This document shows positions 4,141 through 64,000 of a stretch of DNA of 64,000 bases, piece after piece. The stretch covers positions 1,674,001-1,738,000 of the forward strand of contig NC_089430.1 in NCBI RefSeq assembly GCF_026210795.1, given 5' to 3'. A program made the translations under genes and the position numbers. The DNA comes from Rhizophagus irregularis. Its lineage: Eukaryota. The number at the start of each line of letters is the position of its first letter. Position 1 is the stretch's first letter. A model generated the notes under the pieces. That model was not told where the DNA came from. It worked only from the letters and a program-made list of their open reading frames with translations, and made no database searches.

Positions 4141-6756
4141 TTTATTTATTTATTTATTTTATGTGAAGACGGACAGACTATTAACAGGACATATACGTAA
4201 CCGTGCTATCCTACTTCTAGCTATCATCCCCCCGAAGACGGACCCGAACTTCTTTAAATCTAACGAACCAGAATGATCCCCTCCCCTACCAGAAAGGAAC
4301 CAATGAACCAATTAAAAAGCGAACTAATTAACCCGTATTTTTCTTTCAACCATAAAGGTCGCCACCTGTAAATACTGTCATAGGTGGAATGATTCACACT
4401 ATTTGTAATTGTTAATATCTAACTTAATATGAACCAAAAATTCAAAAAATGAATTACAAAAAAGAAACTAAGTTAATTTGATTTAACTACGAAATTTAAA
4501 GAATAAATCTATATTAGAGGGTAAGAAGTCATCTTCTTTGGTATCCCTACAATCAAAAAGACAAATTTTTTTTGTTAAAGGTATAAGATCACCATAATTA
4601 TTATAATGATTATGTTTCGCGCGACGCTTTTTTTGCCGACGTTCTAGTATTTTCGTGTCGTCGGAGGTATCACCTAGGTCGTCTTTTACGTATTCGATGT
4701 TGTTTGCTCGAATGATGGCATGGTATGGTTTAAAGGGGTAATGTTCATCCCTGTATTGTCGTCCATAATCTATTATCAATTTATTAAGACGGTTTGAAGC
4801 TCCTGGTCGTTTGTCGAAGGGTTTCCTTGTAGTTGCTCCATACGCGAATTTGCGAATACTGGCCATACGTTCATCAAAATTATCAGTCATTTGGGTAAAA
4901 AACTCCATAGCATTAGTACGCCTAAGATAATGTTTGGCAGAAGTATTATGATCTTTTATGTCCTTAATGACATTTAACCGTTCGTTAAGACGATCACGAG
5001 CTTTGATCTCACTGATGCGATCTTCATCTAAACCTAAAATATGTGCGTCTCTTAAGGATAGCTGAATTGTAGAGTCTTGTATTAAAAGCACAGCATCGAT
5101 GTATTCCGATGCACCTATACCATAGTGTTCGTCAATAAGATTCTTGATATACCAATTCCTATAAGAATTTTCAGATGTATCATCCCGGCCATCAATGGTT
5201 GAAGAAATATCCTCTTCTTCGGAGTCCTGATCCTTGATAGCACTGCGTAGTGCAGAGGTAATGTGAGGAGGGAAAAACCTATCATCAGGTAAATGTAAAA
5301 GAGTACAGTTCTGATCGTATGGAAAACGGAATAAGGGAACGCTTGGGAAGCGATTGAATAATCCCAAGTTGAACTTTAAGTGAAAAATCCGTTTATTGAT
5401 CCTTTGGTACGGATAGAAAAGGAATTTCCATTGATTCGCCAGTCTAATCTTTTGTCGGAGTTTGAGAGCCATCCCAGATTTGGGCTTATTACTATTGAAG
5501 ATACGTCGACAAGATCGGTCAAAACGAGCTTTTTGTCGTACAGCTGTTCGTGGATTAGAACTTAACATACGAGAGAAATTTTCATAAATCTTAGTGTACA
5601 TGGGACCAACAGCCTTGTAAGGGGGTAAAAGTGAGTCAAGGTTGTGCGCTTCATAACGCGTTGTATAAGAAATGCCCAATCGATTCGAAAAAATTTTTTG
5701 CTTTGAGTTATCATTATATTTTTCATAAATTATGTTGGCGTGAATACTCTTGTGATGAATGATGTTATTCACGGGTGCTGATGCAGCCTTATCCTCTGAG
5801 GGTGTATGTGTAATTTGAGCGATGGCCGAATGATGTTGGATACAAGCGTGTCGATTAAAATTTCTAACAAAAGGGCACGGTGTACGACATGGTGTTGTCT
5901 TATAATGGAGAGACTTCTTTGTAGGTAAGTAATTACAAGCTACATAGATACCAAAGTGAAATCTGTATCGTTTATAAGAGAAGTTAAAAAAAGTTTTCGT
6001 AATGTTGTTACTGCACGTGATTTTTCCTTCACGTGATGCTATCAGATTGAGTCTATCTAACAACTTGAGTCGTATCATGTTAAAAAATTTATTTTGAATA
6101 CGCCGAGGAATAACTCGTTGATGCAAAAAAAAATGCGTGAGGCACTTTGATATTTGAAATCGATGATTAGGTAATTTGCTTGTGGAATAATACCGAATTG
6201 GGGTAGATGACATATAATGATCGTTTGTGTAAATCTTCAGATGAATTTCATTGGTGTCTGGTATTTGATCGACAACCTCAAAAAAGAAACTTTTTGAATG
6301 CCTACATTCGTAGATCTTGTTATAACCTGCTTTGGACGCAGCGGTCACGTGAAATTTTTCGAAAGAGACCAAAAAAGAGAAGGTCGGAAGTGTTGAAGAA
6401 GGTAGAGGAACGTTGACTAAGATAGTCGGAAGTGTGTTATCCTGTGGTTTAATAGTCGTCTTTGAAACATCGTCTTTAGCAAGTCTGCCTTCAGGAATAT
6501 ATCGTCTGCTATTAGAATGTACGTCCAACTGCGGACAAGGTTTTGAAGGTTCATATGGAGCCACGGAAGAGTTGGGTTGGTTGTAACTTAAAGCTGACAT
6601 AGTCCCTTAGTATGGGATAAGATAAGAACTAAAAACCTTGTATAAGACCAAGGCGCCCGTTTGGGCCTCGTTCCCTTTAGCGTTTCAAATAGAAACTAAA
6701 AAAATAAAATTATCGCAAAAATACTGCGGAAAACAAACAAAAATGAAAAAAGGGGG
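4141..6756 (-). mobile_element. Non-LTR (LINE-mobilised) retroelement lacking RT
   Basis: 14-bp TSD CATTCATCGGTAAT at 4127-4140 and 6757-6770; (TAAA)n 3' tail on the minus strand at 4141-4160; single long ORF. Confidence 0.8.
4483..6600 (-). CDS. 705-aa basic hypothetical protein carried by the non-LTR element
   Basis: Uninterrupted intronless ORF with higher GC than the flanks; no recognisable RT (YxDD) or endonuclease motif. Confidence 0.7.
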   Translation of the reverse strand: MSALSYNQPNSSVAPYEPSKPCPQLDVHSNSRRYIPEGRLAKDDVSKTTIKPQDNTLPTILVNVPLPSSTLPTFSFLVSFEKFHVTAASKAGYNKIYECRHSKSFFFEVVDQIPDTNEIHLKIYTNDHYMSSTPIRYYSTSKLPNHRFQISKCLTHFFLHQRVIPRRIQNKFFNMIRLKLLDRLNLIASREGKITCSNNITKTFFNFSYKRYRFHFGIYVACNYLPTKKSLHYKTTPCRTPCPFVRNFNRHACIQHHSAIAQITHTPSEDKAASAPVNNIIHHKSIHANIIYEKYNDNSKQKIFSNRLGISYTTRYEAHNLDSLLPPYKAVGPMYTKIYENFSRMLSSNPRTAVRQKARFDRSCRRIFNSNKPKSGMALKLRQKIRLANQWKFLFYPYQRINKRIFHLKFNLGLFNRFPSVPLFRFPYDQNCTLLHLPDDRFFPPHITSALRSAIKDQDSEEEDISSTIDGRDDTSENSYRNWYIKNLIDEHYGIGASEYIDAVLLIQDSTIQLSLRDAHILGLDEDRISEIKARDRLNERLNVIKDIKDHNTSAKHYLRRTNAMEFFTQMTDNFDERMASIRKFAYGATTRKPFDKRPGASNRLNKLIIDYGRQYRDEHYPFKPYHAIIRANNIEYVKDDLGDTSDDTKILERRQKKRRAKHNHYNNYGDLIPLTKKICLFDCRDTKEDDFLPSNIDLFFKFRS

Positions 6757-17711: not shown

Positions 17712-19694
17712 ACAATAAGGTAAGTTACATTTGGGATCAAAAATTAGAAATATTGATAACTCTGTGAACTTTAATGACCTGATGATAAGTTTAAAACATT
17801 GTATTCTAGGAATAAAAAAGAAAGTGATTTAAATTTACCAATTTATTTACAAAAACGAAAAAAAATACATCCAACATATGATAATAATAAAAAATACCTA
17901 GCTATTAAATAAGTGTATCAAATATTAGCTGAACTGCAAATATCTTTAACTCATAATTGGCTTATTTCACTAAAACTACAATTTATTATTAATCAACCTA
18001 ACAAGGATATGGTTTCTCTTTAGTTTCTCGATAATTTCACCAGTTACAAAAGATATTTCACTTGTCACTTCCATACTTGGCATTTTCGTACTTAACATTT
18101 CCCGATAACTACTATTTAAAAAATCATTTTAAAATAAGTAAAACTTTGAATTAACTTCATTTTTATTAATATTTACTAACCTTAGAGCAAAATATATAAA
18201 TCCTTTATTTGAAAATCAATGAGAAAATTATCCTAAGACCAAGTAATAAGAAATACTTCCATGAATTGGTTGTTAATCCTATTGAATGAGTAAGAAATAT
18301 AAGAATTAAAAAAAGAAAACCGATTACAAAACAAAATTTCCCTCAAATTTTTTAACGTCCGTTTTACAGGAGGATAACGTATAACCTCAATTTTAATATT
18401 ATCACTAGAATTATATTGAACTGAGTTGTAAATGATTTATTGTTATTTATTAGAACTTATCTATGTTTAAAATTTTTGAGACCATCGTTACCAAATCATA
18501 AACAATTGATTAACATGCCATTCATTTAACATTAAAATTTGTTTTGTTCCACATTTACCAAAAAAGTATTAATCATAACTTTAATTAGACTAGTTTGTAT
18601 GTAGTATACTGCTACGTATTGCTGTTTCATTGGCCTTGTTAATTTAATCATCATTCGTATTCATTCCCTTTTCTAATTGAAAATATCAAGCTTTTTCCAA
18701 TTTTTTAATATATTTTCTCTTAATAAACAAAATTTTGTTATTTTTCTTAAAAGTACTATCATTACAGTACTCTTTAAACCTTCAAAAGTAATTTAGTCCA
18801 GTCTTGATAATGGTCTTTAACTTATTCTAAAATTCTTTCTTATTATCTGTAATTTGATTGTTCATATTTTTTATTCTATGGGTTCCATTAGTTTTTTCCA
18901 TGATTCCTTTTGATTATTTCTCTTACATCATCTAAAAGTAAATGCTCCTTGTTTTTATTCTTGTCTTCTCTTACTTTAAAATTTTTAATTCTTTTCTATT
19001 ATGCTAAATATTTCTACTTTTATTATCGTAAAAATGGTCTTTATTAAGATAAGATCCTTATTTATAGTGAGTATTGTATTTCTGGTTCTACTTCATGATT
19101 TGATTCTGTCCTACTATCTCGCCACGCCGTTCTTTTCAATTTTGCCCTTTCTATTTTTAAATTTATGATTCTCTCAATAATTATTCAATTCGTTATTTGT
19201 TAAATATTCATGAAAAAATTGTCTTCCATTATTATCATATTGGTACGCCTTTTCCTATATTTTAATTTTTGTTACAGTAAAATTGTTTGTTCTTATATGT
19301 AGTATTTAATTATAATAACATTTGTTAAATTATAACCTTTCTATAATTTTTTTTCAATGATTTTTTATTGTCATATTTGTGACCTAAGATTATACAGTAG
19401 TTATTTTCTTTGTATTTACCGTAAATGATATACTAATTCTTTCATCTTCTGTATAGATGACAAGATCTATTCCATTGTTTTGGTAAACTCAGATATTCTT
19501 AACCCGTATTCCCGTAAACCATTTGTTCATTTTATGGTAGAGACCACGTGTTATAAAGCACGTGATTTGAGCATCTGATCATTAGTGTTACACTGTATAT
19601 CCGCCGAACTGCAGAATGCATATTACGCAATTTATCACATGTGGTACGTAACACCCTTAAAACGTAAAAGTATAAATTACTCTTTGCCCTACGT

Positions 19695-20262
19695 TGTAAT
19701 GCCGTAGTATACATAGTAAATTTATTAATTGTGAGGCGCAGTATTATATTTAATCTTAGTGTATAAAATTTTAATTTATTTTTAGTTGTATTAATAATTA
19801 GACCGAAAAGTCGTTAAACTATTGATCAGGTGATTCAAGGATAATTGGTCCGAGATGACATTAAACTATCAGTCACGAGATTTAAGGATAAATAAAGATC
19901 CGAAAGATACTAAATTAAATGAAGTCAAGTGATCTGAGGTGTCAAGTGATTAACTTGCTGATCATTACTTTAATATTATAAATCATAATTCAGGAGGTCA
20001 CGATGATCAAATGGATACAGAATTAAGATAATGGAAATACTTTGATAATTTAAATCCATGAATCGAAATTATGAATTTGGTTACACTAAAACAAATATAA
20101 AAGGGTGTGAAGATCACCTTTTGAGAAGGACATTCTTGGATGAATTTCAATTTAATGTTATTAAACCAAGCATATTATTGTATTTATTTATATTATTAAT
20201 AAAGAGATATTTTGTTAATACCTAAGGTGGCAACGTGATTTATCACGGGCTTAGGTGTTACA
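19695..20262 (+). repeat. 5' LTR (568 bp)
   Basis: TGTAATGCC...GGTGTTACA; matches the 3' LTR except a net 21-bp indel and one C/T difference seen by eye. Confidence 0.95.
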
Positions 20263-20264
20263 AG

Positions 20265-20282
20265 TGGTGCATGCTCCGAGAA
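20265..20282 (+). promoter_or_regulatory. Primer-binding site, probably tRNA-Gly
   Basis: TGGTGCATGCTCCGAGAA, 2 nt after the LTR; its complement TT-CTCGG-AGCATGC-A-CCA has tRNA 3'-end geometry, and GCA-starting acceptor stems are typical of eukaryotic tRNA-Gly. Confidence 0.8.
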
Positions 20283-20791
20283 AGGAAAAGTGATCATCCT
20301 CACATGATCACTACAGGTTACGAATAGGAGGATTTCCGAGAAAAGAAATGATCATTTATCACATGATCATCACAGGAAAAAGATTTAAAATCTTTCACCT
20401 AAGGATCGACAAAATTAAGAAGTTATAAAATTAAAAAGTTTAAAGTCTTGGTTGAAAAAGAATTTAAAAATGTATTAATGTTAAAATTTTAAGATATGCG
20501 AAAATAAAGGTTACCGATAAAAAAAATATTAATTCGAATAAATATAAACATGTAGGTAAAAATAATGTTCATAAATTATAATTTTTGATCTAACTTGACC
20601 ACCGGCTGATATGTCAATGAAAAATTATTATTACAATAATTTCCATGCATATGAATCAAATATGCATGGCAGTAATTGATTATCAAGGGAAATGCGAGGC
20701 TAATCAAGTTAGAAGGGGTTTTGAATAAAAATATTGTAAATAATTGAATGAGAGGATTAAGATTAAGTCTTGTATGGACTTTGATCATACT

Positions 20792-20938
20792 AAGTGTACC
20801 CAGAGCTGACACTATAAATTAAGATGGCGGGGATAATATAAAAGTGTACCCAGAGCCGACACTATAAATTAAGATGGCGGGGATAATATAAAAGTGTACC
20901 CAGGGCCGACGCTATAAATTAAGATGGCAGGGTTAATA
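20792..20938 (+). repeat. Three tandem 50-bp repeats in the retroelement 5' leader
   Basis: aagtgtacccagagc(t/c)gacactataaattaagatggcggggataatata at 20792, 20842 and 20892. Confidence 0.9.
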
Positions 20939-21584
20939 CTGTGTGATTCTGTGTGATTCTGTGTGAACTCAATTGAGGTATTCTGTGTGATCAATTGGGA
21001 ATAGGTCTGAGAAGGACCTTTAAAGATAATTCTGTGTGAACTTAGCTAAGAATAATTCTATGAGGGTACCCAAGAAAAATTATGATTAACGTTAACAAGA
21101 ATTAAAAATATTTGCTGGACAAATATATTCAAAGAAAGTTGTTAAAAATTAATAAGGATATAAATGATAAGAGATTTTGTAGCGTAGTAAAATTATATAA
21201 AATGTTAATACAGGTGTCGAGATTATTAATTAAAGATTATCAAAGCACAGTAAATTTTAGGATATAATAGAATTAGAGGCGTAGTAGAAGTATATGAAAG
21301 AGGGAGATTTGAATCTCCCACTTATTAAATGAATTGTTGACACCGTGGAAAGATACATCAGTCTTGGAAATACAACAAATAATCGGACAAATCAAATATG
21401 GATTCACACTTCAACCTTAGGTTGGAAAATTTTATGGAATATAAATTTATTTGTACAAACCTGTAAACTACCATACTCAGTAATGAACAAATGAGGTAAA
21501 GGCAAGCCCAGTATAGGTCAAATAAAATATAAAAGAAGGATAAAAAGTAAAAGATGTGAAAATTTTCAGAGAATTTTATTAAAA

Positions 21585-24500
21585 ATGGAATGGTACCATG
21601 TTTGGAATGCTGGATATATAAACCATAAACAAGAACACGACCTAGGAGTGATAGAACCAGAGGAATGTTTAGCATGTGAAATATGTAACCCAATAGAAAG
21701 AGAAGTATCAGCAGCATTCAAGAAATTTTGGGATGCTTTATTTAAATTTAAGGATACAATACTAATGTACAATAATGTGACACATAAAGAATTATTGAAT
21801 TTATTAAGTATGGACAATAGAGAAAGGGAGGATACAATACATAAAGGAAAATGTAGGAATATAGTAGATAGAATAATTGAATCAATAAGGTACAGACAAC
21901 AACCAAAAATGAAAGAAAAAGGTTTAAGGATAATAATTGTAGTAATTGTAAGGGATTGTATTGAAGGAGACTTAGAAAATGAAGTATTTGACCGATTAAT
22001 TGGATGTCCAGAAATAATGGAACATGGATACATTTTAGAAGATTGGGATGTTGAAAATAGATTTCAAAAATTTTGGGATTGGTATAACACGATATTGGAA
22101 AATGAAATGAAAGCAATACATGTTAAGAAGTTAGCAATAAAGTTATTCAGGGATTTATTATATGAAGAAACAGAAGATCTGTTGAGGAGTGAAAAGGTAG
22201 TTGAATTAATACTCCAGATAGAACATCAGAATAGATGTGAGGCAGACACTCAAGAAGGAAAGGATGCATGGAAGAGATTGATGCAGAAAGTAGGACAAAG
22301 ATTTATTGACACCAAACAATTTACAAGGGAACCTGAGGACCCAGAAAGTGATAGTCCTGAAAGTTATGAACTAGAGGACAGTGATGGTAGTATACATTAT
22401 GAAATAAAAATAGAGGACAATGTCGAATGGACAGTGGAATTATTAAAAAGAAAAATTGAAGAAATGGGTGGAAGGTTCACTGACAAAGATATACAAAGAA
22501 TGTGGGACCTAAGGATAAGGATAGAATTGATATTAACAGAGGATTTTTTAGGTACATTTTTCGAATTAATGGGACTAAGTGATGAAAAATTAAAAGATGA
22601 AATAAATGAATGGTTGACAAAAGAAACATTGAGATGTGGAAATTGTAGAAATAGAAAGTTACCTGATATGATAGCAGACATTGGACAATGTAAAATTTGT
22701 GAACAAAAAGAATTATTAGAATTAAAGGATGACTTAGAAAAACTAGGATACGAATTAAATGTGTCAGAAATAGAGAGAATAAGAAAATTCAGGATAAGCA
22801 ATAGTATAATATTAACAACGGAATTTATGGAAAAATATTTCCAGGAAATTGATACGAATGACAAAGAATTAAGGATAAAATTATATGAATGGATAAATGA
22901 AAATACCACATTTTGTAATGAATGTGGAATAAGATGGATGAACAATAAATTTGACGAAGGAAAAACCAAGTGTAGGGATTGTGAGAATGACGAAAATGAA
23001 ATTGATATCAGGGTCAAAAGATTAAAACAAATATGTGATGATAATAAAATAGAAATAACTGATGGAGAGTTATTAAGGTTAATCAGTATGGGATATACTG
23101 ATGGAGAAATATTGGATCAAGAATTTATTGAAATATTCCAAGGAAATAAAAATGATTTGGAGAAAAATTTAAAACGGATATTGGATAAATTTCTAAAACA
23201 ACAAGCTGGAATTGAGGATAGTGAAAGTAGTGGAAATGAATCTGATAATGAAAAATCTGATGGATCTGAAAAAGAATCAGATGGATCTGGAAAAGATGGA
23301 GAAATTTTAAATCCAAATGATACCGATAGCAATGAAAATTTTGAAGAACCTTATGAAGAAAACATTATAAATAGACCTGGTTTTGACTCAAGTGAAAGTT
23401 CAGAACCAAATTCTGAGGATAAAAGTGAAATATCTGATTATAATATAGAAAATTTATCTGAAACACCTTTAACACCACCGATACCACCAATCCCACCAAT
23501 AGTACCAATAATTATGGGAGCAACAAGAGCTGAAGTAAGGGAAGATTTTAGAGCGGCTTTACTAGCAGCAACGGGACATGATATAGGAGGTAATTGGGCT
23601 GGATTAGTCGCAGCCAACCCATTAGCAAATGCAATTGAGGATGCAGGAAATGTAGCTGGAGGAATAATTAGTATGCCACAATTTTATGGAAAGGAAGAAG
23701 AAGATGTTAATGATTGGGTAAGACAATTCGAAATAGCATTTACTGCTATAGGAAAAGCAGCAGGAGTAAATGGAGCTAGACAAGCAGCAATGGCAGCTAC
23801 CTGTTTGAAAGGTGCAGCAGCACAATGGTATAATGAAAAGAAGGAAGCAAACAATGGTTATTTGATAAATTGGCAAGATAACGATAATGATAATGATTTA
23901 AAACATAGGATTAAACAAAGATTTACCAGGGAAGATGTTAGAAAAAGGAAAATGTTAGAATTAAGGAAAATAACACAAGGAGTAAATGAAAATGTTGAGG
24001 CATATACGATAAGGTTTAGACAAATATTAAGGATAGCTACCAGAGGCCATGCATTAGATGATGAATTACAAGTGGATAATTATATCGAAGGATTAACACC
24101 AGAATTGGGATATCAAGTCAGAAGACAAAACCCAGCAAATTTAAATGATGCAGTGAATACAGCAAGAAGAGAGGAGGAAGCTACTAATGAATTAATAAGA
24201 AGAACACGTAATATACCAGTTAGTACCCAAAGAAAAGGAATTGATATACAGGATGACAAGCCAAAGAATATATTTGAAAAACCATTGGAGAAAAATTATG
24301 AGGATGACCTTACCGAGATGTTTAAAAAATTAGAGGTAAAATTGACAAATCAACTTAGTGGACAAAGGAGACCACCAAATAACAATAGACAAGGACAACC
24401 ATTGCGAGCATGTTATAAATGTCAACAACCAGGACATTATGCAAGGGAATGTAGAGTAAATAATGGTCAAGCAAACTATAGAAGACCAAACAACCAAAAT

Positions 24501-25169
24501 TATAATAAAGGACCAAATAATTATAATGGAAGATCAAATAATTATAACAGACAACCAAATTACCAAAATAATAATCGAGGATTTAATACGATGGAATTTG
24601 ATAACTATAATGATTACAATGACCAATACGATTACGATGGCCAAGTTTATCAAGATGATTATGACCAAGAATACAATTATGGTGACCCATATTACCAAAA
24701 CAATGATATAGTATTTAACCATGTTGATCAAGATTTTTATAATAATCCAAGACAAACAAGGAGTAATATAAAAAATAGGTCAAGTGATCGAGATATAGAT
24801 ATGGAAATTGATCGAGAACAAGCACGCAGAAGAAATGATAAATATGCCAGTCAACAGAATAAGGCAGCAGCATTACCAAAAAGGGGATTTACTAGTGAGA
24901 GTTTGAGAAAAGCTCAGGAAACAAAAAGAAATAATAATACATGTGGAAATTGTGGACAAAAAGGTCACTATGCATCAGAATGTAAAAATGAACGTGTTGA
25001 AGGTATTCATAGGACAAGCGCATTTCAAAGAAATATACCAAAATATAACGTATTAGAGGATATGAAAAGTACCAGAGCAAATGCAACTTTTTCACAAATT
25101 ATAGATATAAGCCCAGAACAAAGAAAAATATATTATGATGGTATGAGAAGATATCCACAAGTAGATTGA
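21585..25169 (+). CDS. gag: Gag polyprotein with long N-terminal extension and two CCHC zinc knuckles
   Basis: Capsid-like FYGKEEEDVNDWVRQFE...LKGAAAQWY...QGVNENVEAY..RF; knuckles CYKCQQPGHYAREC and CGNCGQKGHYASEC. Confidence 0.9.
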   Translation: MEWYHVWNAGYINHKQEHDLGVIEPEECLACEICNPIEREVSAAFKKFWDALFKFKDTILMYNNVTHKELLNLLSMDNREREDTIHKGKCRNIVDRIIESIRYRQQPKMKEKGLRIIIVVIVRDCIEGDLENEVFDRLIGCPEIMEHGYILEDWDVENRFQKFWDWYNTILENEMKAIHVKKLAIKLFRDLLYEETEDLLRSEKVVELILQIEHQNRCEADTQEGKDAWKRLMQKVGQRFIDTKQFTREPEDPESDSPESYELEDSDGSIHYEIKIEDNVEWTVELLKRKIEEMGGRFTDKDIQRMWDLRIRIELILTEDFLGTFFELMGLSDEKLKDEINEWLTKETLRCGNCRNRKLPDMIADIGQCKICEQKELLELKDDLEKLGYELNVSEIERIRKFRISNSIILTTEFMEKYFQEIDTNDKELRIKLYEWINENTTFCNECGIRWMNNKFDEGKTKCRDCENDENEIDIRVKRLKQICDDNKIEITDGELLRLISMGYTDGEILDQEFIEIFQGNKNDLEKNLKRILDKFLKQQAGIEDSESSGNESDNEKSDGSEKESDGSGKDGEILNPNDTDSNENFEEPYEENIINRPGFDSSESSEPNSEDKSEISDYNIENLSETPLTPPIPPIPPIVPIIMGATRAEVREDFRAALLAATGHDIGGNWAGLVAANPLANAIEDAGNVAGGIISMPQFYGKEEEDVNDWVRQFEIAFTAIGKAAGVNGARQAAMAATCLKGAAAQWYNEKKEANNGYLINWQDNDNDNDLKHRIKQRFTREDVRKRKMLELRKITQGVNENVEAYTIRFRQILRIATRGHALDDELQVDNYIEGLTPELGYQVRRQNPANLNDAVNTARREEEATNELIRRTRNIPVSTQRKGIDIQDDKPKNIFEKPLEKNYEDDLTEMFKKLEVKLTNQLSGQRRPPNNNRQGQPLRACYKCQQPGHYARECRVNNGQANYRRPNNQNYNKGPNNYNGRSNNYNRQPNYQNNNRGFNTMEFDNYNDYNDQYDYDGQVYQDDYDQEYNYGDPYYQNNDIVFNHVDQDFYNNPRQTRSNIKNRSSDRDIDMEIDREQARRRNDKYASQQNKAAALPKRGFTSESLRKAQETKRNNNTCGNCGQKGHYASECKNERVEGIHRTSAFQRNIPKYNVLEDMKSTRANATFSQIIDISPEQRKIYYDGMRRYPQVD

Positions 25170-25709
25170 CTACAAGAACCAATAAATAACATTGAAGCTG
25201 AACATTTGACAGCATTAAGGGGTAAACTAATAATAAATCAAGAATTGAAGGATGTAATGTTTGATACAGGGGCAGCAGTAAATGTAATAACTAGTCAAAT
25301 AATGGATGAAATGGACCTAAGAATTGAAGAGCCAAGTACAGTAAGATGTGTGATGATAAATGAGGATAAAGTAGCATCAAGAGGTACCACAACAATATAC
25401 ATACAGTTTGGGGATAAGGAGATACCCATTAAGGTCGAAGTAATTGATTCTGGAAAGAATGAAATTGTGTTAGGGAATGGAGTATTAGATATGTTTAAGG
25501 CGAATATAGATTACACAGATAAAACAATAATACTTAGAATGGATGATGAAACCATGGATGTACCAGTAAAATATATACAAAAGACCATCAAAGGATTCGA
25601 AGAGACATTGATTGAAGATGAATTATTAGATGAATTATACCAAGATGAATTATACAATATATATGAAGATGATTATGAGAATTATGAAAATGAAAATTTT
25701 AAAGTATAA
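25170..25709 (+). CDS. Retropepsin-like aspartic protease, in frame with gag after a single TGA
   Basis: Active site MFDTGAAVNVI and IVLGNG motif; no ATG start upstream of the domain (ORF-track start is TTG). Confidence 0.88.
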   Translation, partial: LQEPINNIEAEHLTALRGKLIINQELKDVMFDTGAAVNVITSQIMDEMDLRIEEPSTVRCVMINEDKVASRGTTTIYIQFGDKEIPIKVEVIDSGKNEIVLGNGVLDMFKANIDYTDKTIILRMDDETMDVPVKYIQKTIKGFEETLIEDELLDELYQDELYNIYEDDYENYENENFKV

Positions 25710-27184
25710 GTCTTGGTCAGAATGATACTGAAGAGACGATAAAGAAGCATAAAAATGACCATGAAAAATTTATTGAAAAATTTAAAGTAGGGGATATAAC
25801 CAATGAACAAAAGGGTAAATTAAAAGTATTAGTAGAAAAATATAAGGATATATTTGAGTACGATGGTGAAAAATATAACAGGACAAATCTAGTGAAACAT
25901 GAGATAAGACTAAAAGAAGGTACTGAACCGATAGCTCAAAAGAGATACAAAGAAAACGACGAAAAAGGTAAATTTATTAGAAAAGAGGTAGATGAAATGG
26001 TAAAATTAGGAAAAATTAGAGAATCCAGAAGCCCTTGGTCTTCACCAGTGACTTTAGCAGGAAAAAAGTCTGGAAATTATAGATTTTGCATCGATTATAG
26101 AAAATTAAATAAAGTTACAATAGCAGATGCATATCCATTACCAAGGATTGACGAACAATTAGAAAGGATAAGCTCAGGAAAATGGTTCACAAGCTTAGAC
26201 TTAGCATCAGGGTTCAATCAGATAGAGATGGCCGAGGAAGATATTGAGAAAACAGCATTCATATGCTCAGCAGGATTATATGAATATAATGTCATGCCAT
26301 TTGGGTTAACAAATGCGCCTGCAAGTTTTCAAAGGTTAATGGATAAAGTATTAAAGGAATACCTGAATGAATTTGTAATAGTGTACATTGATGATATAAT
26401 GATATATTCGGAAAATTTTGAAGACCACCTAAAACACATAAAGTTAGTGTTAGAAAAATTAAAGGAAGCCAGTTTAATACTAAAGTTAAAGAAATGTATA
26501 TTTGGAAAAACAGAAATAGAATTTTTAGGACATGTAGTTGGTAAAAATGGATTAAAACCAAGTCCAGGAAAAGTCGAAAAGATACAAAAATTAACAGCAC
26601 CTACAAATATAAAAGGTGTAAGGTCAATATTAGGATTATGTACGTATTATAGAAAATTTATTAAAGACTTTTCAAAAATAGTAAAACCAATAACGTCTTT
26701 ATTGAGAAAAGATGAAAAGTTTGAATGGGGTATCAAACAACATGAAGCATTAGAAATATTAAAAAGGAAATTAACCGAAGAACCAGTGTTAAGACAACCA
26801 GATTGGTTAAGGAAATTTATATTAATTACAGATGCTTCAGGAATAAGATTAGGGGCAGTATTAGCTCAAAAAGATGATAAAGGTCAAGAATACGTAATAG
26901 AATATGCCAGTAAAAGTTTAAACAGGACAGAACAAAGATGGCCAATAACTGAACAAGAATGTTATGCAATTGTATGGGGAATACAACATTTCCATAAATA
27001 CTTGATCAATAGAAAATTTGAGGTAGTGACAGATCATGCAGCTTTGAAAGGATTGATGACTGCAAAAGTACCAAAAGGAAAGAGATCAAGATGGGTCATG
27101 GAATTAGAACAGTATGATTTTGAAATAACCCATAGACCAGGAAAAGAAAATAAAAATGCGGATGCATTATCAAGAATAATATAA
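25703..27184 (+). CDS. pol: Reverse transcriptase + RNase H
   Basis: SPWSSP, RFCIDYRKLN, LDLASGF, MPFGLTNAP, YIDD, TDAS, EQECYAIVW, TDH, NADALSR; frame open from 25703. Confidence 0.95.
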   Translation, partial: SISLGQNDTEETIKKHKNDHEKFIEKFKVGDITNEQKGKLKVLVEKYKDIFEYDGEKYNRTNLVKHEIRLKEGTEPIAQKRYKENDEKGKFIRKEVDEMVKLGKIRESRSPWSSPVTLAGKKSGNYRFCIDYRKLNKVTIADAYPLPRIDEQLERISSGKWFTSLDLASGFNQIEMAEEDIEKTAFICSAGLYEYNVMPFGLTNAPASFQRLMDKVLKEYLNEFVIVYIDDIMIYSENFEDHLKHIKLVLEKLKEASLILKLKKCIFGKTEIEFLGHVVGKNGLKPSPGKVEKIQKLTAPTNIKGVRSILGLCTYYRKFIKDFSKIVKPITSLLRKDEKFEWGIKQHEALEILKRKLTEEPVLRQPDWLRKFILITDASGIRLGAVLAQKDDKGQEYVIEYASKSLNRTEQRWPITEQECYAIVWGIQHFHKYLINRKFEVVTDHAALKGLMTAKVPKGKRSRWVMELEQYDFEITHRPGKENKNADALSRII

Positions 27185-27273
27185 ATAGATAGGTAAAAGA
27201 CTTGAGACTCAAAAATATATAACAAAAGAGTTAAGCAGGATAAATAAATTGAAATTACCCGAGCAATGTAAAA

Positions 27274-29055
27274 ATGGGACCTAAAATAATAATTATATGT
27301 GGAGTTGATGGTACTGGAAAAACATTCATCGTAAATAAACTTATAAAAGAATTTGAAAAAGTAGGACAAAGTGTGAGGTTTAACACCTTTAAAAGGAGAA
27401 GAGAGGACAATGATAAGTATAAAATACCAAAGAAAGGTATAGAATGGGAATTCAGGAAGGAAGTTGTCGAACAAATCAACAGGAGAATGGAAGAACATGA
27501 TAATGAGGATTGGTTAATATTAGATAAAAGTCCTTATAGTGAGTACTTTTATCAACAGACACCATCATTTGATAGAGGATACATATCAAGATATGAGAAC
27601 CACCTATTAGAAAAGGAAATATTTAGGAACAAAAGGATAATTGATGAATCAATAGTGATATTTTTAGAAAATGAAAAATGTTGGGAAAATTACAAAGGTA
27701 GAGAATATTCGAAAAAGGATCAAGGACATAAAACATCATACCCATTGTTAAATGAAGAAAGATATATGGAGATGGTGAAATCATTTAAAGAATGTCAAGA
27801 TATTTACGAAGGAGAAAAATATGCTAATATTAAAATATCAAATAATGACACAGATTGGGAAAGAGTATATAATAAAATAATAGAATTAGATGGAGATAAA
27901 CCACCAATAGAGGTTAAAAATGTTGAGATTAAGGATAACATCAGAGTAACTGATGGTAAAAAGTATATTGAGAAAAATAGTAAAAACATCAGAGTAATAG
28001 AAGACTTTGAAAAGATGGGAGCATTATATTTGGCTCACAGTCATGAATTATCGGCACATATGGGAATCAAAAGTACTTATGATAATTTAAAAGATAAATA
28101 TTATTGGGAAAATATGCTGAATGATGTTGAAAGATATGTAAGGACATGTGATAAATGTCAGAGAAGAGGAAAACCACAAGGGAAAAATGAATTACACCCA
28201 ATTAAAGTAGTAGAACCATGGTATCAAATCGGGATTGACTTTGTCGGACCATTGAACACAACAACAAATGGTAATAAATACATCATAGTAGTGATGGATT
28301 ATTTTACAAAATGGCCAGAAGCCAAAGCAGTAAAAGAAGCAACTGCTAAAGAAGTATCAAAATTTATTTATGAAGATATCATCTGTAGACATGGATGTCC
28401 AATGAAGATATTGAGTGATAGAGGAAGTCACTTTAACAATGAAATGATTAAAGAATTAATGGAAAAATTCAGGATAAAATGGAATTTTTCTACCAGTTAC
28501 CATCCAGAAACAAATGGATTGGTTGAAAGATTCAATCGAACATTAGGTCAAGCATTAGCAAAATTATCAACTAAGGATGATTGGGATCAAAAGATAGCAC
28601 CCATATTATTCGCCTACAGAAATAAAAAGCACAGTTCAACAAAAATTCGACCATTTTATCTAACATATGGAAGAAATGTACGGACAATAATGGATGAAGA
28701 TATCAAAGGAATCAACCTAAGTGACAGAATAGTTGGATTATTAGAAGAATTACCAAAAATCTGATATGAAGCCAAAGAACAAATATTAAAATCTCAAATA
28801 AAACAAAAAGAGTATCATGACAGAAAAATAATTAAAGAACATACCTTTGGAATTGGAGATAAAATATTACTTTATGATAAAGCCAAAGCACAACAATTAT
28901 CTGGAAAATTGGAATCAAAATGGTTGGGACCATTTTACATTCATGAAATACTACCAAACGGAGCCTACAAAATTAAAGATATTAAGGGTGTAATCAAGAA
29001 AACACCTGTAAATGGAGAATTGTTAAAGACTTACCATACACCGATGAGTAAATGA
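27274..29055 (+). CDS. P-loop nucleotide-kinase-like domain fused to integrase (one in-frame TGA at 28762-28764)
   Basis: N-terminal IIIICGVDGTGKT and LILDKSPYSEYFYQ; then HHCC finger (HSHELSAH...CDKC) and DDE core (IDF, SDRG, GLVER); after the stop, QIKQKEYHD and KWLGPF. Confidence 0.9.
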
Positions 29056-29273
29056 TAACCATCATCAATGGACTTAGAAAAATAAAGATAATTTATAATC
29101 ATGTGAAATAAAATCACATGACATAAAAATAATTTTGGAAAAATAGGAAAAATTAATGAAAATTTCCAAAGAAAGACCTAAGTGAAATCCGGTACAAGAA
29201 AACCGTGAAATTCAAAAGAACACATGACAAACCACGGGAACAGCTGCAGGACGCAGCTAAGTCAAGTAACAAC

Positions 29274-29335
29274 GCATGCTTGATTTAGTAGTATAATTCG
29301 CACCTACCACTTCGAGACACGAGTTCGATTCTTAG
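29274..29335 (+). tRNA. Degenerate tRNA-Gly-like sequence lacking the 3' acceptor strand
   Basis: GCATGCT-TG-ATTT-AGTAGTA-TAAT-T-CGCAC-CTACCAC-...-ACGAG-TTCGATT-CTTAG: A-box-like and B-box-like motifs and a Gly-type anticodon loop (ACC). Confidence 0.65.
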
Positions 29336-29368
29336 AATAAATTTAATGAGGGCATTAAATTTTCATGC

Positions 29369-29377
29369 GGGGGATAG
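29369..29377 (+). promoter_or_regulatory. Polypurine tract
   Basis: GGGGGATAG immediately before the 3' LTR; preceded by a 10-bp-stem hairpin at 29339-29362. Confidence 0.75.
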
Positions 29378-29378
29378 T

Positions 29379-29967
29379 TGTAATGCCGTAGTATACATAG
29401 TAAATTTATTAATTGTGAGGCGCAGTATTATATTTAATCTTAGTGTATAAAATTTTAATTTATTTTTAGTTGTATTAATAATTAGACCGAAAAGTCGTTA
29501 AACTATTGATCAGGTGATTCAAGGATAATTGGTCCGAGATGACATTAAACTATCAGTCACGAGATTTAAGGATAAATAAAGATCCGAAAGATACTAAATT
29601 AAATGAAGTCAAGTGATCTGAGGTGTCAAGTGATTAACTTGCTGATCATTACTTTAATATTATAAATCATAATTCAGGAGGTCACGATGATCAAATGGAT
29701 ACAGAATTAAGATAATGGAAATACTTTGATAATTTAAATCCATGAATCGAAATTATGAATTTGGTTACACTAAAACAAATATAAAAGGGTGTGAAGATCA
29801 CCTTTTGAGAAGGACATTCTTGGATGAATTTCGATAATGAATTATTTATTAGTTATTTAATGTTATTAAACCAAGCATATTATTGTATTTATTTATATTA
29901 TTAATAAAGAGATATTTTGTTAATACCTAAGGTGGCAATGTGATTTATCACGGGCTTAGGTGTTACA
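29379..29967 (+). repeat. 3' LTR (589 bp)
   Basis: Direct repeat of 19695-20262. Confidence 0.95.
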
Positions 29968-30172
29968 ACGTTGTATTAACTTTACGTAATAATATTGATT
30001 GTATTTTTTCTTATTGAGACGTCCCATTAGGTTTAAATATGTTTCGGAAATACAAATGCAATTCATTAAGACTTTATGCATAAATGTAACAATATTTAGA
30101 TATACATTGCCTATAAATACACAATAAAATAAGTTAAATATTCATCTTACAAATTCGCCACACGAATTCGCT

Positions 30173-61439: not shown

Positions 61440-62285
61440 TATAAAGAAACCCATATTTTTTCATAATAGTATTAACTTTCAATTTTTTTATTTATTTATT
61501 AACTTCAGCACATAATTTTACCACTTTAGTCAAATAAAATCAACTTTTTAAATTAATTGAAAATTGTTCAGCAAGATCAAAACCACTTGTATATTAATTT
61601 TTATGGGTATAGGTATAATACATATAGAGAAACCTACATTTTTTATAATGGTACTAACTTTCAAATTTTTGTTCTATTTATTAACTTCAGCACGTAATTT
61701 TACCACTTTAGTCAAATAAAATCAACTTTTTAAATTAATTAAAAATTGTTCAGCAAGATCAAAACCACTTGTATATTAATTTTTATGGGTATAGGTATAA
61801 TACATATAGAGAAACCTACATTTTTTATAATGGTACTAACTTTCAAATTTTTATTCTATTTATTAACTTCAGCACGTAATTTTACCACTTTAGTCAAATG
61901 AAATCAACTTTCTAAATTAATTGAAAATTGTTCAGCAAGGTCGAAACTACTTGTATATTAATTTTTATGGATATAGGTATAATATATATGGAGAAATCTA
62001 CATTTTCATAATAGTACTAACTTTCAAATTTTTTATTTATTTATTAACTTCAGCACGTAATTTCATCATTTTAGTCAAATGAAATCAATTTTCTAAATTA
62101 ATTAAAAATTGTTCAGCAAGGTTGAAACTACTTGTATATTAATTTTCATGGGTATAGGTATAATACATATGGGAAAATCTACATTTTTCATAATAGTACT
62201 AACTTCCAAATTTTTCTTTTTTTTATTTACTAACTTTGGAGCGTAATTTCACCACTTTAGTCAAATGAAATCAACTTTCTTTATT
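61440..62285. repeat. ~182-bp tandem array (~4.5 copies)
   Basis: taacttcagcac(g/a)taatttt.ccactttagtcaaat recurs at ~61499, 61681, 61864, 62045 and (diverged) 62230; a further diverged copy lies near 60300-60440. Confidence 0.9.
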
Positions 62286-64000
62286 AATTAAAAGTTATTT
62301 AGCAGTATAAAATCTACTTAATACTTATAAGACTTATTACATTTTTTATATTAATACTAACTTATGAATTATTGTATAATATATTATTATATTTAAACTA
62401 TATACTTTATATAAATATTTTTATTAATAAATTTATTAGTTTTTTCAAAACAAAACAATTTAAATTTTAATAAATTATGTAATATAAGTGAACTTTACCT
62501 TGGGTGAATTTTATCTCTGATAAATATTAAAATTACTCTTTTAAATAGTATTTAATTTTAAAAAATAATTTTTTTAATATTTAATTAATATATTATTATT
62601 ATTATTATTAGAAGTTATTTTAACATTACACTTTAAAAAATTTATGAAAAATATAAATATAAAAAAATGTATAAATGATTTTTAAAATTAATAATAGAAG
62701 TTATTTCAACATTATATATATATATTATATATATTATTAAAAAATTTATAAAAAAAAATAATTTCTAAAATTAATAAATCAATATATTTAACTAATTATT
62801 ATATTTTATTGTTTAATATAAATAATTAACAAGTATTTTTTTGTTTAATTTATAGTAAAAATTTGTTTAAATTATTTGAATTGTAAAAAAATTAAAATTT
62901 TTACTTTTTAATTAAAACAAATAAAATAAAAAAAAATAAATGCCAAAATCTAATTTTTTAAAATCATAAATAACTTAAATTTCAGAAATTATAATAATTG
63001 AATTACTAGTTATTAATAAATCATTTTCAAAAATCACAAAAATTTTGATTTTTATTTAAATTGATCATCAATTTTTGTAATTTTTGAAAGTATAAAAATT
63101 GCAAATCATCAATTTTTGTGATTTTTGAAAACTAATTTTTTAACAACTAGTAATTCAATTATTATGATTTTTGAAATATAAGTTATTTATGATTTTAAAA
63201 AATCAGATTTTGGCATTTATTTTTTTTTATTTTATTTGTTTTAATTAAAAAGTAAAAATTTTAATTTTTTTACAATTCAAATAATTTAAACAAATTTTTA
63301 CTATAAATTAAACAAAAAAATACTTGTTAATTATTTATATTAAACAATAAAATATAATAATTAGTTAAATATATTGATTTATTAATTTTAGAAATTATTT
63401 TTTTTTATAAATTTTTTAATAATATATATATATAATGTTGAAATAACTTCTATTATTAATTTTAAAAATCATTTATACATTTTTTTATATTTATATTTTT
63501 CATAAATTTTTTAAAGTGTAATGTTAAAATAACTTCTAATAATAATAATAATAATATATTAATTAAATATTAAAAAAATTATTTTTTAAAATTAAATATT
63601 ATTTAAAAGAGTAATTTTAATATTTATCAGAGATAAAATTCACCCAAGGTAAAGTTCACTTATATTACATAATTTATTAAAATTTAAATTGTTTTGTTTT
63701 GAAAAAACTAATAAATTTATTAATAAAAATATTTATATAAAGTATATAGTTTAAATATAATAATATATTATACAATAATTCATAAGTTAGTATTAATATA
63801 AAAAATGTAATAAGTCTTATAAGTATTAAGTAGATTTTATACTGCTAAATAACTTTTAATTAATAAAGAAAGTTGATTTCATTTGACTAAAGTGGTGAAA
63901 TTACGCTCCAAAGTTAGTAAATAAAAAAAGAAAAATTTGGAAGTTAGTACTATTATGAAAAATGTAGATTTTCCCATATGTATTATACCTATACCCATGA
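62146..64000. repeat. Giant near-perfect palindrome, truncated by the window end
   Basis: The last bases of the window are the reverse complement of 62146 onward; arms of ~900 bp pair inward to ~63043/63111. Confidence 0.9.

Follow-up and report, generated by a model that had tools for sequence, protein, structure and literature searches.

The retrotransposon at the locus

The window, by which we mean the whole 64-kb stretch of Rhizophagus irregularis DNA that was analysed, contains a coding Ty3/Gypsy LTR retrotransposon of about 10.3 kb at positions 19695-29967. The element has TG...CA LTR ends and a 4-bp duplication on both sides, and the Gypsy domain order gag-PR-RT-RH-IN (Pfam) is present together with a primer-binding site (PBS) as well as a polypurine tract (PPT). 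In the alignment of the LTR pair, 567 of 590 columns were identical and 21 were gap columns. Because the LTRs differ by just 2 substitutions and one 21-nt indel, the insertion is a young one. The annotated parts are the following (window coordinates; + is the forward strand).

19691-19694 and 29968-29971: target-site duplication ACGT, 4 bp, left and right copy
19695-20262, +: 5' LTR, TGT...ACA, from the LTR-LTR alignment
20227-20232, +: U5 hexamer GTGGCA (copy in the 3' LTR at 29932-29937), complementary to the Gly(GCC) anticodon loop; putative primer pairing
20265-20282, +: PBS, 18 nt, 2 bases past the 5' LTR
21495-25166, +: gag-containing frame, 1224 aa from stop to stop, with a capsid-like domain and a zinc knuckle (Pfam) in its C-terminal half
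25170-25706, +: aspartyl protease frame, in the phase of gag with one stop between
25703-27181, +: reverse transcriptase and RNase H frame
27274-29055, +: separate ORF, P-loop nucleotide-kinase-like domain fused to an integrase, in-frame stop at 28762-28764
29274-29335, +: tRNA-derived segment, in sense orientation, matching the PBS-cognate tRNA from position 1 to 62 (in decayed form to 65) and lacking the 3' acceptor strand
29281-29291, +: A-box-like stretch of the D-arm, in which a G at 29290 re-creates the GG in the majority of sibling contigs
29314-29332, +: V-loop/T-arm piece, common to the U5 of six related families, with an intact B box at 29323-29331
29339-29362, +: pre-PPT hairpin, 10 bp, purine-rich loop
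29369-29377, +: PPT
29379-29967, +: 3' LTR

A single stop at 25167-25169 closes gag, the protease continues in phase behind it, and the reverse transcriptase opens in another frame at 25703; these breaks between gag, protease and reverse transcriptase may represent readthrough or frameshift signals or may be due to decay. About 750 residues ahead of the capsid domain (21495-23700) had no Pfam match. The kinase part of the separate ORF (27274-27900) was matched weakly, below the cut-off, by dTMP-kinase models, and the kinase-integrase ORF shares 97% identity with a protein of Rhizophagus irregularis. In P0003 and P0004, too, a P-loop nucleotide-kinase-like domain is joined to an integrase that is encoded separately. 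We found no published description of the element or of its kinase in a search that extended neither to Repbase nor to most subscription papers. Elsewhere in the window, a 707-aa open frame without a Pfam match is present on the minus strand at 4483-6606, and an extensive, almost perfect inverted repeat (536 nt at 98% and 308 nt at 97%) adjoins a 182-nt tandem array at 62146-64000.

A partial sense copy of the cognate primer tRNA

The first-pass annotation had described the segment starting with GCATGCT at 29274 as a Gly-shaped sense copy of what looked like the element's own primer tRNA, with the 3' acceptor strand gone and a perfect hairpin following at 29339-29362. These letters are present as noted, and the T-loop GTTCGA starts at 29323. 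The 18-nt PBS implies tRNA positions 59-76, and the 5' acceptor strand of the segment pairs with the implied strand at 7 of 7 positions. The D-loop, the anticodon loop, a 4-nt variable region and the T-loop lie in register, which we take to be the layout of eukaryotic tRNA-Gly. In a score of 28 features, composed of the PBS-predicted acceptor and T-stem letters and the universal tRNA letters, position 29274 reached 24, and no other position on either strand of the window exceeded 19. For a second scan, with ARAGORN, the 18-nt 3' end implied by the PBS was added in silico to each of the 10,218 plus-strand 55-mers of the element. The completed 29274 came out on top with a score of 91.4, and the best non-overlapping position of the element reached 76.5. 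Because the segment ranks first in both null scans, the resemblance is not a matter of chance.

Its positions 50-62 also match the antisense evidence, which consists of the PBS and of a copy in the related locus L022, in 13 of 13 letters. The segment thus corresponds, in sense orientation, to the tRNA implied by the PBS over positions 1-62. The donor was likely tRNA-Gly(GCC), positions 1-48 of the primer being deduced largely from the element-borne copies themselves. The window copy carries the change C49A and a one-base deletion. It contains four CpG within 62 nt, corresponding to an observed/expected ratio of 1.48 compared with 0.40 in the coding region. Pattern searches of viral contigs for the primer tRNA yielded 13 unrelated matches, 2 unrelated matches or none, a blastn search of phages gave just one 21-nt T-arm match (E 7), and the available portions of PMC4786338, PMC5324750 and PMC6317226 contained no tRNA-Gly sequence.

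An unrelated tRNA-derived SINE inserted at this site, or a fortuitous likeness, would agree with the missing covariance-model call and the negative ARAGORN result reported below. We regard this as very improbable and as largely refuted by the wide margin by which both scans rank the segment first and by its identity with the one tRNA implied by the PBS; the flanks share no word of at least 5 nt as a target-site duplication, and no tail is visible.

In its own context, the segment is not a tRNA gene. ARAGORN at default settings called no tRNA genes in the 64-kb window, and it called the segment only at 60% of the threshold, with 28 other calls in the window already at 80%. The covariance-model check proposed with the first annotation was made against Rfam and gave no tRNA match for the segment at E values up to 10; the cloverleaf is thus below the thresholds of both programs. 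The segment folds like its own shuffles (z = -0.04), its T and anticodon stems are broken, and with positions 66-76 missing it has neither a seven-pair acceptor stem nor a discriminator. The anticodon loop reads ACC, and no variant of it was listed among the sibling contigs.

These features bear on one of the initial suggestions, namely a family that supplies its primer tRNA from its own sequence or formerly did so. Indeed, the copy begins at position 1 and agrees with the cognate primer. However, the 3' strand that would pair with the PBS (positions 66-76) is absent from the window, from the sibling contigs, including a divergent one from soil, and from all 8 relatives bearing a sense piece, in which tRNA identity stops at or before position 62. 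Moreover, no tRNA gene was found in 80-81 related loci (the best 80 of 291). For present copies, a self-encoded primer is refuted, and we consider this explanation hardly credible overall.

Sibling copies were represented by contigs from seven runs, matched at 80% likeness, and the segment is indeed present in them, as a check on sibling elements had been expected to decide. At 29290, the A of the window is the rarer state and recurs in at least two contigs. Most siblings have a G, which restores the D-loop GG of the A box; in run X1, this GG accounted for 26467 of 27033 of the summed depth over 16 contigs. tRNA position 10 differs from the A-box G in all contigs but one. No contig, loose end or variant at 80% likeness contained the acceptor 3' end. 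One soil contig (depth 6.8, a single record) matches 29269-29334 with 8 differences (58 of 66 letters) and continues into a different hairpin, and another sibling contig matches from 29251 onward after unlike upstream DNA. Because these divergent contigs, few as the records are, carry the segment, the module appears to be older than the window copy. A rise in depth over the segment was set aside as a measure of copy number, since summed overlapping contigs give no copy number.

Primer-related sequences in distant relatives

Relatives of the element were collected as metagenome loci with related integrase ends, of which the best 80 of 291 confirmed ones were used; viral contigs contained none, and genome contigs gave one weak match. 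Nine of the best 80 run through the LTR into the PBS, and all nine have the PBS of the window, three of them with one substitution and two with 1-2 nt inserted. In the latter two, L025 (at 2184) and L038 (at 2709), the insertion lies between the acceptor-pairing and the T-stem-pairing parts, which suggests that copying of the tRNA does not restore the PBS in every cycle. The same has been reported for Ty1 and Ty3 in the available part of PMC5371799. In six of the nine, pairing reaches 1-3 nt beyond the 18 nt, with the letters predicted by the T-loop of the window; two of these six are 1-nt extensions, for which the chance expectation is one in three or four.

The hexamer GTGGCA occurs 38-66 nt ahead of the PBS in 9 of 10 LTR ends (window, L018, L019, L020, L025, L031, L035, L038 and L045), and no other hexamer, counted within 100 nt of the PBS, is present in more than five. 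Because it is complementary to positions 33-38 of the GCC anticodon loop, it points to tRNA-Gly(GCC) as the primer, and the A34 of the segment is probably a mutation. The remaining LTR end, that of L022, has neither the U5 hexamer nor a sense piece, even though L022 and L020 hardly differ in their integrases. At 1344-1360, about 60 nt past its PBS, L022 carries an antisense copy of primer positions 50-66.

With 4 substitutions at most, the 19-mer at 29314-29332 is found again in 8 of the 80 relatives (best 80 of 291), belonging to six families, compared with 0-1 matches on both strands in the shuffle control. All eight pieces are in the LTR on the plus strand, 104-181 nt ahead of the PBS in the six loci that reach one. 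Agreement across the six families amounts to 48/54 at positions 43-52, 35/36 at 53-58 and 20/24 at 59-62, and the match to the primer drops to 3/24 at positions 63-66; the flanks agree at 29-36 of 60, or about half. Three of the six families share with the window an intact B box; in the other three (5 of 8 loci), it is broken. In two of the latter families, it is broken in both loci seen of each, and positions 43-52 are still conserved. Conservation therefore reaches letters outside the B box and involves no stem. There is no A box upstream of the piece in the relatives, and in L038 it is directly preceded by 11 letters of the tRNA 5' end.

The six families are scattered over the integrase tree (4 changes), and their integrases are 59-65% identical to that of P0001. 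The tree is a quick one of the window, two proteins and 35 of the 80 loci, chosen to include the labelled ones with L030 omitted; 12 of its 35 inner branches are open, and the clustering of the U5 label on it is not significant, since a value as low occurred in 63 of 500 shuffles. Among the 50 relatives with a PPT-like call, no near-complete copy was found ahead of the PPT, and the 5' half of the tRNA copy was found in none of the 80 (best 80 of 291), so the near-complete pre-PPT copy is limited to the window family and one divergent contig. L022, L031 and L045, three of the nine relatives reaching the PBS, are without any sense piece, which is thus dispensable.

The captured piece may have been kept as a DNA element, serving as a Pol III promoter with A and B box in the window family and as a lone TFIIIC site in the relatives, and acting either as an insulator or through a short RNA that ends at T runs past the hairpin. 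This would agree with the B boxes that are intact, the D-loop GG of most siblings and the four retained CpG, and the window offers runs of four T at 29360-29363 and of five T at 29463. Helenus elements likewise retain tRNA pieces with conserved A and B boxes, as described in the accessible text of PMC10886601. The broken B boxes next to conserved positions 43-52, the relatives' missing A box and the deviating position 10 argue against it, and it leaves unexplained why the tRNA is that of the primer. As a promoter, the reading is possible in part, namely for the window family, and unfit for all relatives together; on balance, we think it unlikely, if worth keeping in mind.

Selection may also have played no role, accidental primer copies riding along and decaying, perhaps refreshed by copy-choice with packaged tRNA. 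No structure is kept, the piece is missing from three of the nine relatives that reach the PBS, the pre-PPT position is empty in all relatives fetched, and sense orientation and boundaries are what capture alone yields. It is hard to reconcile with this explanation that the 19-nt piece keeps a likeness of about 90% among families with widely separated integrases, with flanks at background level and in CpG-depleted elements, and we therefore consider neutral persistence rather improbable.

Two neighbouring features that had been connected with the tRNA copy at first turned out to be separate from it. The hairpin at 29339-29362, a perfect 10-bp stem with a 4-nt loop, had been noted as following the tRNA copy; that it belongs to one unit with the tRNA is not supported. 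Relatives that have no tRNA piece at this place carry it ahead of their PPT as well, which makes it a general, lineage-wide pre-PPT signal. Hairpins with a purine-rich loop and a stem of at least 7 bp occur before the PPT in 18 of 39 distinct regions compared with 16% in shuffles, the regions being unpicked and some PPT calls misplaced. In the window and 15 relatives, which were picked for having the hairpin and whose relatedness was uncontrolled, the hairpin covaries, with 15 cells showing double changes and 0 of 500 shuffles as high. The kinase had been taken together with the tRNA as a hint of an element provisioning its own replication. This link was not upheld: of the four kinase-bearing relatives (L036, L042, L049 and L053), three have their LTR start 70-84 nt past the integrase match, too close for the segment to fit in, and the fourth is too short to tell. 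In a sister group (L059, L061, L067, L068, L079 and L081), integrase and hairpin-PPT are separated by about 450 nt that apparently form a short ORF. A likeness of the 3' UTR to old LTR sequence is not claimed, since it consists of short motifs only and blastn found none.

Origin, possible function and known systems

The segment very probably originated from primer capture during minus-strand synthesis, in agreement with the fossil of primer capture that had been one of the initial suggestions. Reverse transcriptase would have switched from the genomic RNA to the packaged primer, and such a switch would yield a sense copy, on the plus strand, of the part that the PBS leaves free, beginning at mature position 1. 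The switch is assigned to the minus strand because a sense copy requires the tRNA as minus-strand template; plus-strand read-through of the primer would instead leave antisense sequence past the PBS, as seen in L022. What capture predicts is found in the segment: it is derived from the cognate tRNA, starts at position 1 (compared with the inferred tRNA) and ends near the PBS-paired part.

As to why the copy has been retained, we tentatively propose that its complement in minus-strand DNA pairs with the free 5' part of the attached primer, an idea to which we give somewhat less than even weight. The minus strand would carry the antisense of tRNA positions 1-62 (about 37-62 in the U5 families), which would fold back on the covalently attached primer to form an RNA:DNA hybrid. 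At about position 58, this hybrid would either stop plus-strand synthesis or expose the primer to cleavage by RNase H, and plus-strand strong-stop DNA would then end at the PBS boundary. If capture is granted, such a hybrid or trimming step has, by our reading of the sequence, a chance only slightly short of even. Positions up to 58, which the PBS leaves free, are the best-kept part of the piece. Having the same sense as the tRNA, the segment cannot bind the 5' part of the primer on genomic RNA. That in a Gypsy lineage related to elements of mycorrhizal fungi a sense copy provides an antisense guide only in minus-strand cDNA, and thereby a cis-encoded substitute for the m1A58 stop, would be an undescribed step of LTR reverse transcription, and in this full form we regard the idea as speculative and rather unlikely. 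In HIV-1, m1A58 controls the plus-strand strong-stop step, according to the available part of PMC13191261. The different placement of the piece, in U5 or before the PPT, weighs against the proposal, as a single mechanism would have to account for both, and C49A and the one-base deletion would weaken the hybrid in the window copy. We found no precedent for a minus-strand antisense-primer mechanism in our literature search. Pairing of the segment with the R-U5-PBS RNA was also considered and discarded, because it was better than that of random 62-mers of the element (8 of 300 as good), but not than that of its own shuffles (52 of 200).

The segment offers a clean test of plus-strand strong-stop ending and primer removal. 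Even as a fossil, it records primer capture, which is one route by which LTRs may gain tRNA promoters without a SINE, and tRNA-like matches in mycorrhizal genomes may be element-borne. Our literature search, which extended neither to Repbase nor to most subscription papers, yielded no Gypsy element described as carrying its cognate primer in sense orientation, and an earlier annotation in Repbase is possible.

The nearest known case is Helenus/TRIMp3 (Kojima 2024), non-autonomous elements of 311-1263 bp containing a tRNA-like sequence without complementarity to their own PBS; a fair number of LTRs in Repbase contain tRNA-like portions (both from the available text of PMC10886601). As far as that text goes, they share with our lineage a non-functional tRNA-derived sequence in an LTR retrotransposon, located inside the LTR in the six families of relatives. 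In contrast, the window element is a coding one of 10.3 kb with gag, pol and integrase, its tRNA is the PBS-cognate one, and the single copy lies outside the LTRs (inside the LTR in the 8 relatives). Regarding the A and B boxes that are conserved in Helenus, the B box is intact and the A box nearly so in the window family, whereas the related families have no A box and half of them a broken B box.

Extra primer-related sequence at the 3' end is also known from the bipartite PBS of Ty3 and the 3' PBS of Drosophila gypsy (accessible parts of PMC5371799 and PMC1635307), and HIV-1 has a tRNA-Lys3-like sequence in U3/R (S1) that is bound by the primer on genomic RNA (accessible part of PMC9757044). 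As described there, all of these sites are complementary to the primer on RNA, whereas the segment of the window is sense. Judged by the available part of PMC13191261, the U5 hexamer resembles the A-rich loop contact of HIV-1, the PBS extensions the primer over-extension sequence of lentiviruses, and both together with the antisense copy of L022 look like the A-rich loop, primer activation signal and over-extension contacts. These secondary contacts are putative here and concern the 5' end of the lineage, not the sense copy. Relics of tRNAs in LTR elements are thus known either as primer-unrelated Pol III promoters (Helenus) or as complementary primer sites (Ty3, HIV-1), and a sense copy of the cognate primer that is partly kept across distant coding families fits neither type.
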